A stretch of 64,000 bases of DNA from Escherichia coli (GTDB taxonomy: Bacteria > Pseudomonadota > Gammaproteobacteria > Enterobacterales > Enterobacteriaceae). The notes under the pieces are model-generated. The model saw nothing but the letters and a program-made list of their open reading frames with translations. It was not told the origin of the DNA and ran no database searches. The number at the start of each line of letters is the position of its first letter. Within the stretch, counting starts at the first letter, position 1. Of the stretch, positions 35,082-51,507 are shown in pieces. Made by a program: the position numbers and the translations under genes. The stretch is from the NCBI RefSeq assembly GCF_003334315.1, contig NZ_QOWR01000011.1, one strand, 5' to 3'.

Positions 35082-39431
<4,350 letters not shown>

Positions 39432-39435
39432 CCAA

Positions 39436-39481
<46 letters not shown>

Positions 39482-39482
39482 A

Positions 39483-42329
<2,847 letters not shown>

Positions 42330-42334
42330 AATAA

Positions 42335-43066
<732 letters not shown>

Positions 43067-43078
43067 GCTGAAGAAATA

Positions 43079-43763
<685 letters not shown>

Positions 43764-44237
43764 TTAACTTAAAGAGTCTGTTTCAGGACATGAAATATCC
43801 AATCCGGGCAGACGGGTAATGATTCTGCTCATCACCACACCTGCCAGCAATGCAGGAATGATGCGGACAACGAGACTGTCACCAGAAAGAATGTTTTCAA
43901 ACAACTCCGAGGAAGCCATGCCCTTAATATGTACAATAACTGCACAATAGATCTCGGTGATAACGACGCCACCTATGCCACCAGCCAGACAACGATAATT
44001 TTTCTGTGACCCGATCTTTTCCGGCAGACAGGCGACCATCACGCCGGTTAACAATGCAGGAATAGCTCCCGTAGTAATCGACAATAAGAGAAACAATGGA
44101 AGTACCTGTATTATTACCAAAAGAACCAGCGGTTCTTTTGCGAAGAATATGTAGAGGACAAGAAACAGAACACCAATTAACGGTCCTAAAACCGCAAAAT
44201 AAAGTCCGTGATGTATTACCCGACGTGAAACAGACAT
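43764..44237 (-). CDS. cbrB: Inner membrane protein CbrB (YieI)
   Basis: Hydrophobic ORF; start chosen at MSVSRRVIHHGLYFAVLGPL (157 aa), exact start uncertain. Confidence 0.8.
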   Translation of the reverse strand: MSVSRRVIHHGLYFAVLGPLIGVLFLVLYIFFAKEPLVLLVIIQVLPLFLLLSITTGAIPALLTGVMVACLPEKIGSQKNYRCLAGGIGGVVITEIYCAVIVHIKGMASSELFENILSGDSLVVRIIPALLAGVVMSRIITRLPGLDISCPETDSLS

Positions 44238-44303
44238 ATCAAACACCCTTAACTTACCTTTGAGCGCCAATTTAAGCGGGGTAAGTGAAGGGAGTGTGAA
44301 GAA

Positions 44304-44969
44304 CTATGCCGTAATATCCCAACCACGCGCTTTCCACAGTTCCGGTAACTGCGAAAGATGGGTAAAGGTGGTGACTTTCGGGTGAACGATCGGCTTATTG
44401 TGCGGGTCGGCGCAGAAGTAGAACACTTCCATACCTGCGTCGATACCAGATTGCGCACCGGCAACTGAGTCATCAACCAGAATGCAGTTTTCTACATTTA
44501 CATTCATCGCTTTTGCCGCATGGAACATTAACGCCGGGTCTGGCTTCCAGCGCTGAATATCGTAGCCGCTGAACAGTTTATCCGGGAAGTAGTGCAACAT
44601 ATTCAGCTTGCCCATAGAATGCTGCATTTTGTTATTTGGGCCGTTAGATACCACACACATTGGCGCAGTGATCGCTGACAGGAGCGCTCCAGCCCCTTCG
44701 ATGGCTTCCAGTTCTGAATCGAACAGCCGAGCGACTTCTGCACGGTAAACGTGTTCAGCTTCTGTTTTCGCTAACGTAACACCATGTTCAAGGGAAACAA
44801 TATCGATAATTTCGTACAGTTTTACACCTTTGAAACGTTTGAATACCTCTTCAGGATCGAGCGTAATACCAAATTCCTGAAACATCGTTACATATGCGCG
44901 AGAGCAAATGACTTCACTGTCGACCAGCGTACCGTCGCAGTCGAAAAATACCGCTTCTATCCGGGACAT
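44304..44969 (-). CDS. yieH: HAD-superfamily phosphatase YieH (6-phosphogluconate phosphatase)
   Basis: 221-aa ORF with HAD motif I FFDCDGTLVDSE. Confidence 0.9.
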   Translation of the reverse strand: MSRIEAVFFDCDGTLVDSEVICSRAYVTMFQEFGITLDPEEVFKRFKGVKLYEIIDIVSLEHGVTLAKTEAEHVYRAEVARLFDSELEAIEGAGALLSAITAPMCVVSNGPNNKMQHSMGKLNMLHYFPDKLFSGYDIQRWKPDPALMFHAAKAMNVNVENCILVDDSVAGAQSGIDAGMEVFYFCADPHNKPIVHPKVTTFTHLSQLPELWKARGWDITA

Positions 44970-45133
44970 GCCTTTCCTTTTTAATCAGTTTAACGTTTTC
45001 GTAGAGCCGATTTGCGCAACGCAATCGTTGCCGTATAAGTAAATCCAATAAAAAAGTCTCTCACAAACGCGCCTATTGTCGCATTTTGGTATACGATAGC
45101 GACGGATTTTCCCTCCTTGTTCGGAAATAGATA

Positions 45134-46471
45134 ATGAGTCAACAACACACAACCCAGGCTTCTGGCCAGGGGATGCTGGAACGCGTGTTTAAACTGCGCG
45201 AACATGGCACGACGGCACGGACCGAAGTGATCGCTGGTTTTACCACCTTCCTGACGATGGTTTACATCGTTTTTGTTAACCCGCAAATTCTTGGCGTTGC
45301 TGGCATGGATACCAGCGCCGTCTTCGTCACTACCTGTCTGATTGCTGCATTCGGCAGTATTATGATGGGACTGTTTGCTAACCTGCCAGTTGCACTGGCA
45401 CCCGCTATGGGCCTGAATGCGTTCTTCGCTTTTGTCGTTGTGCAGGCGATGGGCTTGCCGTGGCAGGTCGGGATGGGCGCAATCTTCTGGGGCGCGATAG
45501 GTCTGCTGTTACTGACGATTTTCCGCGTTCGCTACTGGATGATTGCCAACATTCCGGTGAGTCTGCGTGTGGGCATCACCAGCGGTATCGGTCTGTTCAT
45601 TGGTATGATGGGACTGAAGAATGCAGGTGTGATTGTCGCTAACCCGGAAACGCTGGTCAGCATCGGTAATCTGACTTCTCACAGCGTGCTGCTGGGGATC
45701 CTCGGCTTCTTCATCATCGCCATTCTGGCCTCGCGCAACATTCACGCGGCGGTGCTGGTTTCCATCGTGGTGACAACGCTGCTGGGCTGGATGCTGGGTG
45801 ATGTCCACTATAATGGCATCGTTTCTGCGCCGCCGAGCGTAATGACTGTCGTGGGTCATGTAGATTTAGCCGGTTCGTTTAACCTCGGCCTGGCAGGGGT
45901 GATTTTCTCTTTCATGCTGGTCAACCTGTTTGACTCCTCCGGTACGCTGATTGGCGTGACCGATAAAGCAGGTCTGGCGGATGAGAAGGGTAAATTCCCG
46001 CGCATGAAGCAGGCGCTATATGTCGACAGTATCTCTTCTGTTACCGGTTCGTTTATCGGTACTTCTTCTGTTACGGCGTATATCGAGTCTTCTTCCGGCG
46101 TTTCTGTTGGTGGTCGTACCGGTCTGACGGCAGTCGTTGTTGGTCTGCTGTTCCTGCTGGTTATCTTTCTGTCGCCGCTGGCGGGGATGGTGCCAGGCTA
46201 CGCTGCAGCTGGTGCGCTGATTTACGTTGGCGTGCTGATGACTTCCAGTCTGGCACGCGTGAACTGGCAGGATCTTACTGAATCTGTTCCGGCGTTTATT
46301 ACCGCCGTGATGATGCCGTTCAGCTTTTCGATTACCGAAGGTATTGCGCTGGGCTTTATCTCCTACTGCGTAATGAAAATCGGTACCGGACGTCTGCGTG
46401 ATCTAAGCCCGTGCGTAATCATCGTTGCGCTGCTGTTTATCCTGAAGATTGTGTTTATCGACGCTCACTAA
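45134..46471 (+). CDS. adeP: Adenine permease AdeP (PurP/YieG), NCS2 family
   Basis: 445-aa polytopic membrane ORF MSQQHTTQASGQGMLERVFKLREHGTTARTEV. Confidence 0.92.
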   Translation: MSQQHTTQASGQGMLERVFKLREHGTTARTEVIAGFTTFLTMVYIVFVNPQILGVAGMDTSAVFVTTCLIAAFGSIMMGLFANLPVALAPAMGLNAFFAFVVVQAMGLPWQVGMGAIFWGAIGLLLLTIFRVRYWMIANIPVSLRVGITSGIGLFIGMMGLKNAGVIVANPETLVSIGNLTSHSVLLGILGFFIIAILASRNIHAAVLVSIVVTTLLGWMLGDVHYNGIVSAPPSVMTVVGHVDLAGSFNLGLAGVIFSFMLVNLFDSSGTLIGVTDKAGLADEKGKFPRMKQALYVDSISSVTGSFIGTSSVTAYIESSSGVSVGGRTGLTAVVVGLLFLLVIFLSPLAGMVPGYAAAGALIYVGVLMTSSLARVNWQDLTESVPAFITAVMMPFSFSITEGIALGFISYCVMKIGTGRLRDLSPCVIIVALLFILKIVFIDAH

Positions 46472-46487
46472 AATCGATAGCGCGTTA

Positions 46488-46520
46488 AAAACCCGCCATG
46501 CATGATTGCTGGCGGGTTAT
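46488..46520. terminator. Bidirectional terminator between convergent adeP and chrR
   Basis: Stem ACCCGCCA / TGGCGGGT then TATTTATTT. Confidence 0.7.
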
Positions 46521-46524
46521 TTAT

Positions 46525-47091
46525 TTAGATCTTAACTCGCTGAATAAACTCACCAAATGCGGTCAATTGCCCGGTCAGGTGGTCCAGCGTACCCTGGTCA
46601 ATCACTTCTCCGGTTTGCGGATCAACTTTGTTCTGAATCACGCCGCCCATAAATTCCGGCTTGTTCATCACCATTGCATCGAGGAAAACCAGAATCTGGC
46701 GCAGGTGATACTGACAGCGCGCGCCGCCAATCACGCCCATTGAGCTGGTCTGAATCAATACCGGTTTACCGGCCAGCGGTTGATCCGGCAGGCGGGAAAG
46801 CCAGTCGATGGCATTTTTCAGCCCACCCGGTACCGAGTAGTTATATTCCGGCGTGACGATCACCACACCGTCAGCCTGACGGATCTGTTCCGCCAGAGCT
46901 TCAACCGTTGCTGGAAAACCGTCTTCCTGCTGTACGTCAGCGTCATACAAGGGAATGTCGGCAATGGAAGGTAACGCATTGACTTCCATGCTCGCCGGAG
47001 CAATTTTCGGCAGGGTACGTGCAACCATGCCATTAAATGAGCCTTTGCGCAGGCTCCCCAGTAACGTAACCACCTGCAATTTTTCAGACAT
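46525..47091 (-). CDS. chrR: NAD(P)H-dependent FMN reductase / chromate reductase ChrR (YieF)
   Basis: 188-aa ORF MSEKLQVVTLLGSLRKGSFN, NADPH-dependent FMN reductase motif. Confidence 0.92.
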   Translation of the reverse strand: MSEKLQVVTLLGSLRKGSFNGMVARTLPKIAPASMEVNALPSIADIPLYDADVQQEDGFPATVEALAEQIRQADGVVIVTPEYNYSVPGGLKNAIDWLSRLPDQPLAGKPVLIQTSSMGVIGGARCQYHLRQILVFLDAMVMNKPEFMGGVIQNKVDPQTGEVIDQGTLDHLTGQLTAFGEFIQRVKI

Positions 47092-47112
47092 GATGACTCC
47101 TGTGGTTGTCTA

Positions 47113-47874
47113 TCAATTTGGCGAAAAAGCCTTCACGGTAGAGAGTTGGGCAAAACGCATCATCCGGCTGGTAGGATTGTTGGCGCGGCTGTGAATATCC
47201 GGCAGGCTTTTCCAGCCGTGTTTGCCATCTAACTCCCAGACACTGAGCTTTTCAATCGTGGGCGTGACCGCCACGGACCACACCAGCACGTCTTCCGCGT
47301 CGCATAACGCTTCTACATGATTTACATGAGCACATTTCAGGCGTCCGGCAATGGGCAGCAGCTGCAGATCGCGCGGATCGTCATTCAAAACATCACCGGT
47401 TAGTTTTAGCACGCTTCGGCGCAGCGTGATGAGCTGCGCCCGCGCTTCGTTAGGATCGTTTTGTTTACTGATCCATAGCGATTCATTGCTGGAAAAGGTG
47501 TGGTTATCGGGCGCGTGTGGGCTATGAAACCCGCGCGTCGCACGCTGTAGTTCCATATCGAGACCACATTCACCTTCGGTTGTTAACGCCACGCCAACCA
47601 TATTCCCGGCATAGGAAATAGAAAACGAAGGCAAATTTTTATCACTGAAAACCGGTTTACCTTTCGGCAGGGTGACGATTTCCGGCAATTCGCCAATGCC
47701 ATACAGCATGAACATCAGTTCTGCGAGTAAACCTCTAGACGCCAGAAAACGGCTTTGACGATGAGGGGGAATGTTTCGGGCTTCTTGATGACACTGGGAG
47801 GGGAGACGAACAGAAATCAGATGTCCTTCCGTTAAAATCCCTCGGGCAAAGTGAGTCGCCATTTTTCGCTCCAT
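47113..47874 (-). CDS. yieE: Putative 4'-phosphopantetheinyl transferase YieE
   Basis: ORF matches YieE by length and context; annotated start may be the downstream Met at 47862 (MATHFARGIL). Confidence 0.82.
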   Translation of the reverse strand: MERKMATHFARGILTEGHLISVRLPSQCHQEARNIPPHRQSRFLASRGLLAELMFMLYGIGELPEIVTLPKGKPVFSDKNLPSFSISYAGNMVGVALTTEGECGLDMELQRATRGFHSPHAPDNHTFSSNESLWISKQNDPNEARAQLITLRRSVLKLTGDVLNDDPRDLQLLPIAGRLKCAHVNHVEALCDAEDVLVWSVAVTPTIEKLSVWELDGKHGWKSLPDIHSRANNPTSRMMRFAQLSTVKAFSPN

Positions 47875-48018
47875 GCTTAATGGTCCATTATGAATACAAG
47901 AGTAATCATTTACTGGAATGATGGACAGACTAAAGCGGCTAAAAGTTCGATTCAGACAAGCTTATTACAACTTTTTTACATTTTATTGTGAAATTGGGTC
48001 GCGTTTCATACGATTCGG

Positions 48019-48978
48019 TTATGCCATCGACGCGTAAAGGTTTTTAATGGTTTCCCGTAACCAGACGATCTTCGGATTATGGCTGTTCCGTTTATGCCAC
48101 AGCAGGGTAAAAGGAACTTCCAGCTTTTTTTGCTGGCTTTCGTCAAACGGGAGAGGAAGAGCAACCAACGGCAGTTGATGGAGTTGATTGTAGTACTGAC
48201 AGTAGCGCGGCGCGGTCGCCAGTAGCAGATTGTCGGGTTGCGCTGCCATAAACAGTGACTGCTCAAATTCCGGCAGGCTCATAGCAATCGTGCGTTCGCG
48301 CCCCAGCTCCTGTAACACATTGTCCAGCGCCCAGGTGTCGCTCTGTTCCCAGCAAATGCTGATATGCGGATAACGTAAAAAGGTGTCCAGATTCCACGTT
48401 TCATGCAGTGCCGGATGATCTTTGCGTAACCAGACGCAGGGTACATCACTAAACAGCACTTCATAATCAATGGCTAACGGTAGCGAGCTTAACAGCTCCC
48501 GCGAGCGAGGATGGCTTTCGCGACCGGAAAAACCAATATCCACTTCACCACGAGTAATGGCATCTAAGGAATCGTAATCCCAGTTACGTAGTTTGATGGT
48601 CGCCTGCGGGTAACGTTGGTAGATCCGTTTCGACAGCGCATTAAGCATGATCATCATCAGCGGCGATTCCGCCGCCAACTCAAACTTCAGGCCGCGCGGT
48701 GTCTGGTGGTGCGGTTTATCCAGCAGCAGATTGCTCATTTGCATCTATTCCGCCAGATTTTGCTCCATGCTGACCATCAGCGGTGTGGGCGACAGACCCA
48801 GCGGTGAGTTCACAAAGAGCGGGTCGTCAAACCACGCTCTTAACTTTGCCAGCGACTTACTCACCGCCGAAGGTGTCACGTTTATCCGCTTCGCCGCTTT
48901 GGTTACGCTGCGCTCCTGCATCAGCAGTTGCAGACAAAGCAGCAGATTGAGATCAAGCGTGGTGATGGATTTCTTCAT
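48019..48978 (-). pseudogene. yidZ: LysR-family regulator YidZ interrupted by an in-frame TAG stop (minus-strand codon at 48745-48747); 77-aa HTH N-terminal fragment and 241-aa C-terminal fragment
   Basis: Track ORFs 48745-48987 and 48019-48744 are in the same minus-strand frame separated only by TAG; fragments plus one codon give 319 aa, the K-12 YidZ length. Confidence 0.7.
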
Positions 48979-50128
48979 GAGCGGCAACGGGGCGTCCAGG
49001 CGCGACGAACATAATCAGCAACAGGCTCACTATGCTACAGGCAATCAGAATCCCGATCAGCATATTCCATGCGCCGATACCAACCACCGCTGCCAGCCAA
49101 ATCCACAGTGACGAACCGCAAACCTGCGCAATACCTAAGGTCGAGCTGGCTACGCCCGCGCGTAATGAAAACGGCCCTAACGCCTGACTCATCGCCACAC
49201 CAAAACCTACCGAGAAACCGGCGCAAATCAGCGTGATACCAAACAGAGAAACCGCATGGGAAGGTGAAACGGCAAGAGTGATCCCCGCCGCCAGGAATAA
49301 CACCTGCGAGGTGATCATCAACGTACGTGGCTTAAAAATTCCCAGCGCAAATGGCGTGGAGAATGAAACGGTCATGCTGACGCCAGCGGTCAGCGCCATA
49401 ATGGTGGCGTATTCACCGCGCTCAAACCCCATGATTTCCATCAGCAATACCGGTGACGTGTTGACGAAAGTGAGGATCACCGAAACGCTGAGGGTGGTGA
49501 TAACAACACGGCTGAGGAAAAAACGGTTAAGCAGCGACTCGCTATTTTCTCGTGGTTTATCCGAAGCTGCGGGGGCCGCTGGGCGCGTTTCTTTTAAAAT
49601 AAACAAAGACAACATCAGTACCGCGATGCCCATCATTGCCATCGCCCAGAACAGACTCTGCCACGGGAATTTAAGCATAATCAGATGTCCGAGCACTGGC
49701 GCTAACACCGGAATGATGCAGGTAATACCGTTGAGTAATGACAGCACTTTAGCCCGACGTCGATCATCCAGCGTGTCGCGCAAAATAGCGAACGCCACTA
49801 CGTAACAACAGCCTGCGCCCAACCCCTGTAGAAATCGGCCTGCAAGAAATAACGTGCTGGTTTCAGCCAGTGAACAGAACACCGAGGCAATAATAAATAG
49901 CGCCGCGCCGGGTATGGCGACCGGCTTTCTCCCTGAACGATCGGCCACTTTACCGGCAAATAACATCGCAGCTGCCATCCCCGCCAGATATACGGAGAAC
50001 GCAATATGCAACTGCGCTTCGCTGGCATTGAGATCGGCGGCGATGCGCGGTAAACCAACGAGGTACATATCAATCCCGGCGGGATAAAGTAAAACCAGGG
50101 CAAAACTACAAATCAAAAAGCGGGACAT
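48953..50128 (-). CDS. mdtL: MFS multidrug efflux transporter MdtL (YidY)
   Basis: 391-aa 12-[46 protein letters not shown]. Confidence 0.93.
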
Positions 50129-50259
50129 GGGCTAAAGCGTCCTGATAGTAAGGTGACGCAAAGCATACGTGGTGAAGGAGGATCAGGCGAGTTGCCATTT
50201 GGACATAAGTGATTTCCTGAGAGGCAAGAAGCCAGCGAATGGCTGGCTTCTTGAAGGAT

Positions 50260-51507
50260 TTAGCCAAATTTAGGTAACACGTTAAAGACGTTGCCGAACC
50301 AGCACAAAATCACGGTTATACCAAAGAGAATGACAATCGCCGGAATAAGATTGCCGCCCCAGACCGTGAACATCTGATTGGGAAACTTCTTGCGAGCTTT
50401 GATTGCAAGCACTGCGGGAATAATGACCGCCCAGATGGTGGCGCACAGCCCGGCACCGCCGATCCCGTAAATAAAGCCGTTCGGGAAGATCAGATACAAC
50501 AACGCAGGTGGCAGGAAGGTTAACAGCACGGTTTTGAAACGCCCGCCGTGGGAGTTATCAATCTTAAACAGGTCCGCCAGATAATCGAACAACCCCAGCG
50601 TGACACCAAAGAACGAACTGGCAACAGCTAAGTTAGAGAACACCAGCAGGCAAAACTCGATAATGCCGTGCTGTTTGGTGCCGAGGAACGATTTCACCAG
50701 CGAATCAACGTTGCCGCCTGAGGAGATAATCGCCTTAAAGCTTTCTCGCGGAATATTCCCCATGGTGCAATAGAGCCAGAAGAGATAAATCACCAGCGCC
50801 AGCAGCGAACCAAATACTACGCTTTTGATTAACTTATCTTTGCGTTTTCCATAGCAAATAATCAGGCTGGGAATATTGCCGTGGAAACCAAATGACGCCA
50901 GACACACCGGCAAAGCCATAAAGATATACGGGAAGTAAGACGTTCCCGCAGTGGAGCTGGTGGCGTCGCGCAGAATGGAGTAATCGACCTGGAAGAAAAA
51001 AGAACCAAACACGATCACAAAGGAGATAATCTTCAGCCCGAGGAACAATGAGGTAATACGACTGGCGGCTAACGAACTTAACCACAATACGCTGGCAACG
51101 AAAATGGCTGTGCAGATCCCGACAATACGTGGATTAGCGTGATAACCCAAATTCATTGATATCGTTTCACTAATGATCGCACCATTAGCAGAGATATAGG
51201 CATAAGTGAGGATATAGAGAACGAAGGCAACGGTAATACCGCTGATAATGTTCCAGGTGTTACCGATTAAATCTTTGGTGATGGTGTTAAAACTGGAGCC
51301 GACGGGATAATTTAAATTTGCTTCTAATAACAATAACCCGGAATGAAGCATTGAAAACCAGGCAATGATAAGGATAAAGGCACCCCAGAAAAACCAGGCA
51401 CCGGCAAGATCAACAGGTAAAGCAAACATACCTCCACCAATTACTGTACCTGCTATAACCATAACACCCCAAAATGCAGAGTGCTTTTTTTCAGCTTGAT
51501 CAGTCAT
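50260..51507 (-). CDS. tnaB: Low-affinity tryptophan permease TnaB
   Basis: 415-aa ORF MTDQAEKKHSAFWGVMVIAGTVIGGGMFALP, aromatic amino acid permease family. Confidence 0.96.
   Translation of the reverse strand: MTDQAEKKHSAFWGVMVIAGTVIGGGMFALPVDLAGAWFFWGAFILIIAWFSMLHSGLLLLEANLNYPVGSSFNTITKDLIGNTWNIISGITVAFVLYILTYAYISANGAIISETISMNLGYHANPRIVGICTAIFVASVLWLSSLAASRITSLFLGLKIISFVIVFGSFFFQVDYSILRDATSSTAGTSYFPYIFMALPVCLASFGFHGNIPSLIICYGKRKDKLIKSVVFGSLLALVIYLFWLYCTMGNIPRESFKAIISSGGNVDSLVKSFLGTKQHGIIEFCLLVFSNLAVASSFFGVTLGLFDYLADLFKIDNSHGGRFKTVLLTFLPPALLYLIFPNGFIYGIGGAGLCATIWAVIIPAVLAIKARKKFPNQMFTVWGGNLIPAIVILFGITVILCWFGNVFNVLPKFG

Follow-up and report, generated by a model that had tools for sequence, protein, structure and literature searches.

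A premature amber codon at Trp78 of yidZ, probably a recent null allele of a LysR-type regulator in Escherichia coli

Background

The closest described counterparts of the locus studied here are the intact yidZ genes of Escherichia coli, such as K-12 b3711 and the allele WP_001460148.1, with which it shares its location and synteny (tnaB-mdtL-yidZ-yieE-yieF). The intact WP_001460148.1 alleles of its nearest relatives are identical to it in DNA apart from one base and encode the same two Pfam domains. That base makes codon 78 TAG rather than TGG so that, unlike intact YidZ, the locus encodes no single 319-aa chain. In K-12, ChIP-exo identified 118 binding sites for YidZ and the protein was classed as a global regulator; the K-12 yidZ knockout is viable and has 74 differentially expressed genes, with gadA, gadBC, hdeD and hdeAB-yhiD down and rbsD, malM, malE and malX up (PMC8464067). 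The 118-site binding profile and the regulon of K-12 YidZ (PMC8464067) are expected to be lost in the strain described here.

Other null alleles of yidZ in E. coli and Shigella resemble this one in being rare, lineage-restricted and located early in the gene, often on otherwise intact haplotypes, but they differ from it in codon or in mechanism (W78 TGA, E72 TAG, Q80 TAA, Q92 TAG, deletions and a fusion). Translational restart fragments were reportedly obtained from the early lacI amber mutants of Miller and colleagues, in which, as here, a nonsense codon lies just past an N-terminal DNA-binding domain and in-frame ATGs follow immediately downstream. From those ATGs a core lacking the DNA-binding headpiece could be made, as is conceivable for yidZ. 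LacI belongs to another regulator family, however, and restart was demonstrated there whereas for yidZ it is conjectured; nor is there a wild-type yidZ copy here on which a dominant-negative effect could act. In what follows, the window is the whole 64,000-nucleotide stretch of E. coli DNA that we analysed.

Results and discussion

The interrupted yidZ frame

Translated from 48978 to 48019 on the minus strand, the yidZ frame reads as 77 residues, a stop, 241 residues and a terminal stop. The TAG at 48747-48745 (minus strand; coding context AAT CTG GCG GAA TAG ATG CAA ATG AGC) is the sole interruption of the 319-codon gene (48019-48978, minus strand), which consists of 319 sense-codon positions (77 + 1 + 241) followed by TAA and otherwise equals the intact allele WP_001460148.1. 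Two listed open reading frames, at 48745-48987 and 48019-48744 (both minus strand), lie in a common frame one codon apart. The upstream one was listed from a TTG at 48987 and so as 80 aa, but homologues begin at the position of the ATG at 48978, from which the fragment is 77 aa long. A reading made earlier from the sequence only had described two same-frame minus-strand ORFs that are split only by a TAG and that, with this one codon, add up to the 319 aa of intact YidZ, and both the ORF list and the translation bear it out. We suggest that annotation merge the ORFs at 48019-48987 into a single yidZ pseudogene containing an internal stop instead of listing two genes.

The gene immediately upstream, mdtL (48953-50128, minus strand), encodes an intact MFS efflux pump of 391 aa. 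Its TGA (48955-48953) falls 26 nt inside the yidZ frame, so that yidZ stands directly behind mdtL on the same strand, and the gene order mdtL-yidZ-yieE is the same as in CP53, S171-1, 027_SK3 and MG1655. Shine-Dalgarno (SD) pairing at the native yidZ start is weak (-3.0 kcal/mol), and yidZ translation may therefore normally be coupled to that of mdtL. A promoter and terminator scan of 46900-50500 gave hits that were not above those in shuffled sequence, with no terminator 3' of yidZ, and the scan is therefore uninformative about polarity.

The ancestral codon

We used megablast to compare positions 47900-49150 with 5,426 complete E. coli genomes. The yidZ region was present in 5,424 of them, with top matches at 99.9% identity, and none of the 5,426 matched the query at 100%. 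Compared base by base, CP53 differs from the window at a single position in 1,251 nt, namely 48746, where its codon is TGG (Trp78), and many other E. coli genomes are likewise identical over the 1,251 bases except at 48746. Codon 78 is TGG in K-12 as well. Among 20 aligned YidZ orthologues, drawn from Escherichia, Citrobacter, Klebsiella, Enterobacter, Pectobacterium, Vibrio, Photobacterium, Psychromonas and Shewanella, Trp78 is an invariant column (20/20). Because tryptophan has a single codon and Trp78 is invariant, the ancestor was TGG and the event a G-to-A transition on the coding strand. Judged by these alignments, the change is G to A (C to T on the plus strand) at 48746, turning Trp78 from TGG into TAG; the derived base at the premature amber stop (48745-48747, minus strand) is T on the plus strand and A on the coding strand. 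The sequence-only reading had favoured a TGG ancestor and a single G-to-A step and had proposed alignment to reference yidZ as a check; that alignment gave the expected result, with TGG in K-12 and in the closest relatives and Trp in all 20 orthologues.

The same reading had allowed that intact homologues might naturally be two separate genes. They are not, since in every genus sampled from a large protein database YidZ is one polypeptide of about 319 aa that carries PF00126 as well as PF03466, and the relatives that we fetched have one annotated gene. Neither a natural split nor stop-codon recoding was indicated: a split is not conserved among relatives, and the stop is restricted to rare lineages.

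Where the break falls in the protein

Against the NCBIfam YidZ equivalog NF007581, whose cutoff is 314 bits, the repaired protein reaches 685.8 bits. As encoded, the 77-aa piece scores 152.9 bits, which is below the cutoff, and the 241-aa piece 513 bits. The two pieces tile profile positions 1-77 and 79-318, so this is not a chance ORF pattern. The Pfam winged helix-turn-helix (HTH) domain HTH_1 (PF00126; residues 10-66, E=1.7e-13) lies wholly within the 77-codon ORF (48748-48978, minus strand), and LysR_substrate (PF03466; residues 101-313, E=1.8e-16) lies wholly within the 241-codon ORF (48019-48744, minus strand, including its stop), which also encodes the remainder of the linker and would be translated only by restart. 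In an AlphaFold model built from the orthologue alignment (mean pLDDT 81.1), three helices and a wing occupy residues 10-64, a linker helix spans 66-85, residues 83-95 are of low confidence and an effector-domain strand begins at 98. The full-length LTTR structures 2esn and 2uyf align with YidZ straight through position 78.

Since the stop falls inside the modelled linker helix at 66-85, the 77-aa fragment is predicted to retain the winged HTH together with about 12 of the 20 residues of that helix. The earlier description of a detached 77-aa HTH fragment stands as regards the winged HTH, which is retained from ATG 48978, with the refinement that the break falls within the linker helix. A single uninterrupted chain of about 300-330 aa with both domains and the linker helix is what a functional member would have, and the TAG at codon 78 leaves none. 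By these sequence features, the locus is a disrupted member of the YidZ family (a pseudogene or null allele) and not a functional one.

We propose that a recent, spontaneous G-to-A transition at the invariant Trp78 codon produced the TAG. Translation from ATG 48978 would stop 77 residues in, within the helix linking the winged HTH to the effector-binding domain; the full-length LysR-type regulator would not be made, and the strain would effectively be a yidZ null. Very probably, a nonsense change at Trp78 has recently made a null allele of a regulator that the cell can do without, and the allele persists under weak selection. Such persistence would most likely reflect weak selection on yidZ, not a functional split of the protein. 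Having neither the oligomerising effector domain nor the distal part of the linker helix, the 77-aa fragment should bind DNA poorly. In other LTTRs, a DNA-binding domain with the full linker helix can bind DNA, and the 77-aa fragment may have some residual activity. The strain should behave like the K-12 yidZ deletion mutant, which is viable, with lower expression of the acid-resistance genes (gad/hde) and higher expression of mal/rbs genes. As a natural knockout of a regulator termed global, the strain could differ from its relatives in the expression of gad/hde, maltose and ribose genes.

Frequency of the allele and of other yidZ lesions

An initial 71-nt probe around the stop proved ambiguous, as GAG-TAG scores one mismatch just like GAA-TGG; a second haplotype probe was also tried. 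The replacement probes were 31-mers in which every 28-nt seed contains the stop, made for both codon-77 backgrounds and accompanied by a TGG positive control. The GAA-TAG and GAG-TAG 31-mers matched 0 of the 5,426 complete E. coli genomes, with the proviso that an allele carrying an extra SNP within 14 nt of the stop would escape them. The GAA-TGG control matched exactly in 2,120 of the same 5,426 genomes.

In public assemblies we counted as stops only those places where the stop lies inside a long contig. Most exact matches to the 241-aa and 77-aa fragments (for example, loci L004-L013 and L017-L023) proved to be truncations at contig ends or scaffold gaps and were set aside. The window's own haplotype (GAA-TAG) was seen only in the lineage of SRR1122540. 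Codon 78 is also TAG in ERR4027834 and SRR33896483, where yidZ is of the K-12 haplotype apart from the stop and the flanks are non-K-12, and in L065, which has a Met32 haplotype with 35 differences from the window in 2.7 kb. In two further backgrounds (L025 and L061) codon 78 is TGA. Since alleles could pass between backgrounds by recombination, these codon-78 stops require at least two events (one TAG and one TGA), but four or five are likelier.

We considered whether codon 78 is a mutational or selective hotspot and rejected this, as neighbouring codons have similar numbers of stops. A control look-up in public assemblies, made for the neighbouring codons Q73, Q80 and Q92, each one transition away from a stop, gave no internal stops at Q73, but Q80 is TAA in L040 (K-12-like haplotype) and L069 (Met32 haplotype), Q92 is TAG on two haplotypes (L050 and L052; L051) and E72 is TAG in L066 and L067. 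Given these comparable neighbours, and the two mutational paths by which codon 78 can become a stop, it is no outlier. Lesions of other kinds were also encountered: an mdtL-yidZ fusion ORF (L063), a rearrangement that places rtcB beside a truncated gene (L060), a frameshift (L064) and a scaffold that spans a gap (L068). The protein database holds shortened 'YidZ' forms of 279-292 aa with internal deletions as well as truncated forms from Shigella flexneri.

As far as these sequences go, loss-of-function alleles that are rare and arose independently seem to be scattered through the species, which is the pattern to be expected where purifying selection is weak. Between genera the protein is strongly conserved, yet within E. 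coli this scatter suggests weak purifying selection on the 'global' regulator. The window's allele is a loss-of-function mutation of an ordinary sort, recent and confined to its lineage, in a gene that is not essential, and it does not challenge current understanding. It is mildly notable only because YidZ has been described as a global regulator and because the stop replaces an invariant Trp and is directly followed by two in-frame ATGs.

Translational restart and a split YidZ

An alternative is that the interruption is functional, with termination at TAG and restart at ATG79 or ATG81 yielding a free HTH peptide and a separate effector protein whose regulatory role is altered (it might, for example, sequester ligand), or that loss of YidZ is adaptive and has been repeatedly selected. 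ATG79 (48742-48744, minus strand) abuts the stop (TAGATG), and ATG81 (48736-48738, minus strand) lies 6 nt past it and is the start chosen by gene callers in public assemblies, giving a 239-aa product. The 241-aa part could be made only by restart at one of these codons, and any 241- or 239-aa restart product would be without the DNA-binding domain.

A weak SD-like GGCGGA (48749-48754, minus strand) stands 4 nt before ATG79 and 10 nt before ATG81. Predicted to pair with the 3' end of the 16S rRNA at -4.8 kcal/mol, this element ranks among the strongest 12% of yidZ positions, which average -2.2 +/- 2.2 kcal/mol, and falls within the range of 15 real starts in the window (-5.9 +/- 2.2 kcal/mol). 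Reinitiation without an SD is still significant at short distances (PMC3592434), which together with the adjacency of the two ATGs favours restart, but juxtaposed stop-start pairs are unusually SD-dependent, with a 42-fold drop when the SD is removed (PMC3592434), and the SD here is weak. Moreover, the predicted local mRNA fold pairs and buries the restart codons, and ribosome-profiling work argues against re-initiation as a dominant mechanism in E. coli (PMC7538156).

Codon 78 has become TAG on at least three haplotypes and TGA on at least two, which might be taken as a sign of repeated selection. Against this stand the comparable stops nearby (Q92 TAG on two haplotypes, Q80 TAA on two and E72 TAG, with none at Q73), the absence of the allele from all 5,426 complete genomes and the invariance of both Trp78 and the single-chain architecture in orthologues. 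We therefore regard a functional split or adaptive loss as improbable. More improbable still is the specific proposal that Trp78 stops, ATG79/ATG81 and the weak SD together reflect repeated selection for a 'split YidZ' whose restarted effector domain rewires the regulon of the 118-site regulator.

Amber suppression

A recent null allele is also preferred over the reading, raised as a question in the sequence-only reading, in which an amber-suppressor tRNA reads through the TAG, so that full-length YidZ with residue 78 substituted or restored is still made in useful amounts. The 64-kb window contains no tRNA genes, and the literature, searched for amber suppressors of natural isolates, gave no useful information. 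With 146 mismatches to MG1655 over 19.6 kb, the strain is not K-12, which makes a laboratory supE or supF background unlikely; its nearest relatives are animal and environmental isolates, and suppressors are uncommon in natural isolates. Since Trp78 is invariant, Gln, Tyr or another replacement might not be tolerated. Suppression to a useful level thus seems very unlikely.

Recovery of the stop in a second assembly

Exact look-ups located the 77-aa product within long contigs in which the C-terminal part had been called next to it as an ORF of its own. In the Logan assembly of SRR1122540, contig 42 (30.9 kb) matches the window over 20,234 nt at 100% identity and has both the TAG and the remaining changes private to the window; the same contig is recorded for three samples, and there are further similar places. 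A literature search on this run found no mention of it. SRR1122540 possibly represents the window's own reads, in which case it is an independent assembly but not necessarily independent sequencing. Because this assembly reproduces the TAG, the same base has been recovered by an independent pipeline, and to the extent that the two sequences can tell, the stop is not an artefact of one assembly; nor do they show a sense codon at 48745-48747, which in reads would have refuted the sequence-only reading. That the TAG is a sequencing or assembly error in a strain that truly has TGG is very improbable: the stop is a single-base difference from all 5,426 complete genomes and the same strain has a 1-bp deletion in a G4 run of bglB, potentially an error type, but the differently assembled SRR1122540 shows the TAG and all other private changes across the 20,234 nt, and substitution errors are rare at the consensus level.

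Age of the mutation and other strain-specific changes

The stop is the only difference from the intact yidZ allele over 960 nt, and the frame shows no further decay. As yidZ has no other change, the nonsense mutation appears to be recent; an in-frame stop at a codon that is sense in relatives and orthologues, with no decay beyond it, is what a recent pseudogene should look like.

S171-1, the nearest complete genome, differs from positions 24000-64000 of the window by five single-base differences and one 1-bp indel. Five changes in this interval, the TAG among them, are private to the window in a comparison with S171-1, 027_SK3 and three other lineages, and all five lie within 39246-48746. This might suggest local clustering of private changes, but the first 24 kb of the window has 7 more differences from S171-1, which are not polarised, and their presence weakens the idea.

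The other private changes are in bglB, bglH and yieL. In bglB (plus strand), a change from GGGG to GGG at 39246 shifts the frame at codon 405, so that the product has 412 aa where 464 would be expected; the SRR1122540 assembly shows this deletion too. This lesion, within the bgl operon, is the second disrupted gene of the strain. The remaining three are bglH D451G (40868), yieL Y178D (41691) and the synonymous yieL N320N (42119).

Elsewhere in the window, the site at 53425-53432, between tnaC and mnmE, is empty, with no IS1; in the closest complete genomes (S171-1 and several others) it carries an IS1 (768 bp), on either side of which the 8-bp site is duplicated. The replication origin oriC is expected at about 15728-16105, between mioC and mnmG, and three DnaA-box matches (TTATCCACA twice and TTATACACA once) are clustered at 15750-15938. 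Another consensus DnaA box lies at 57796, near dnaA.
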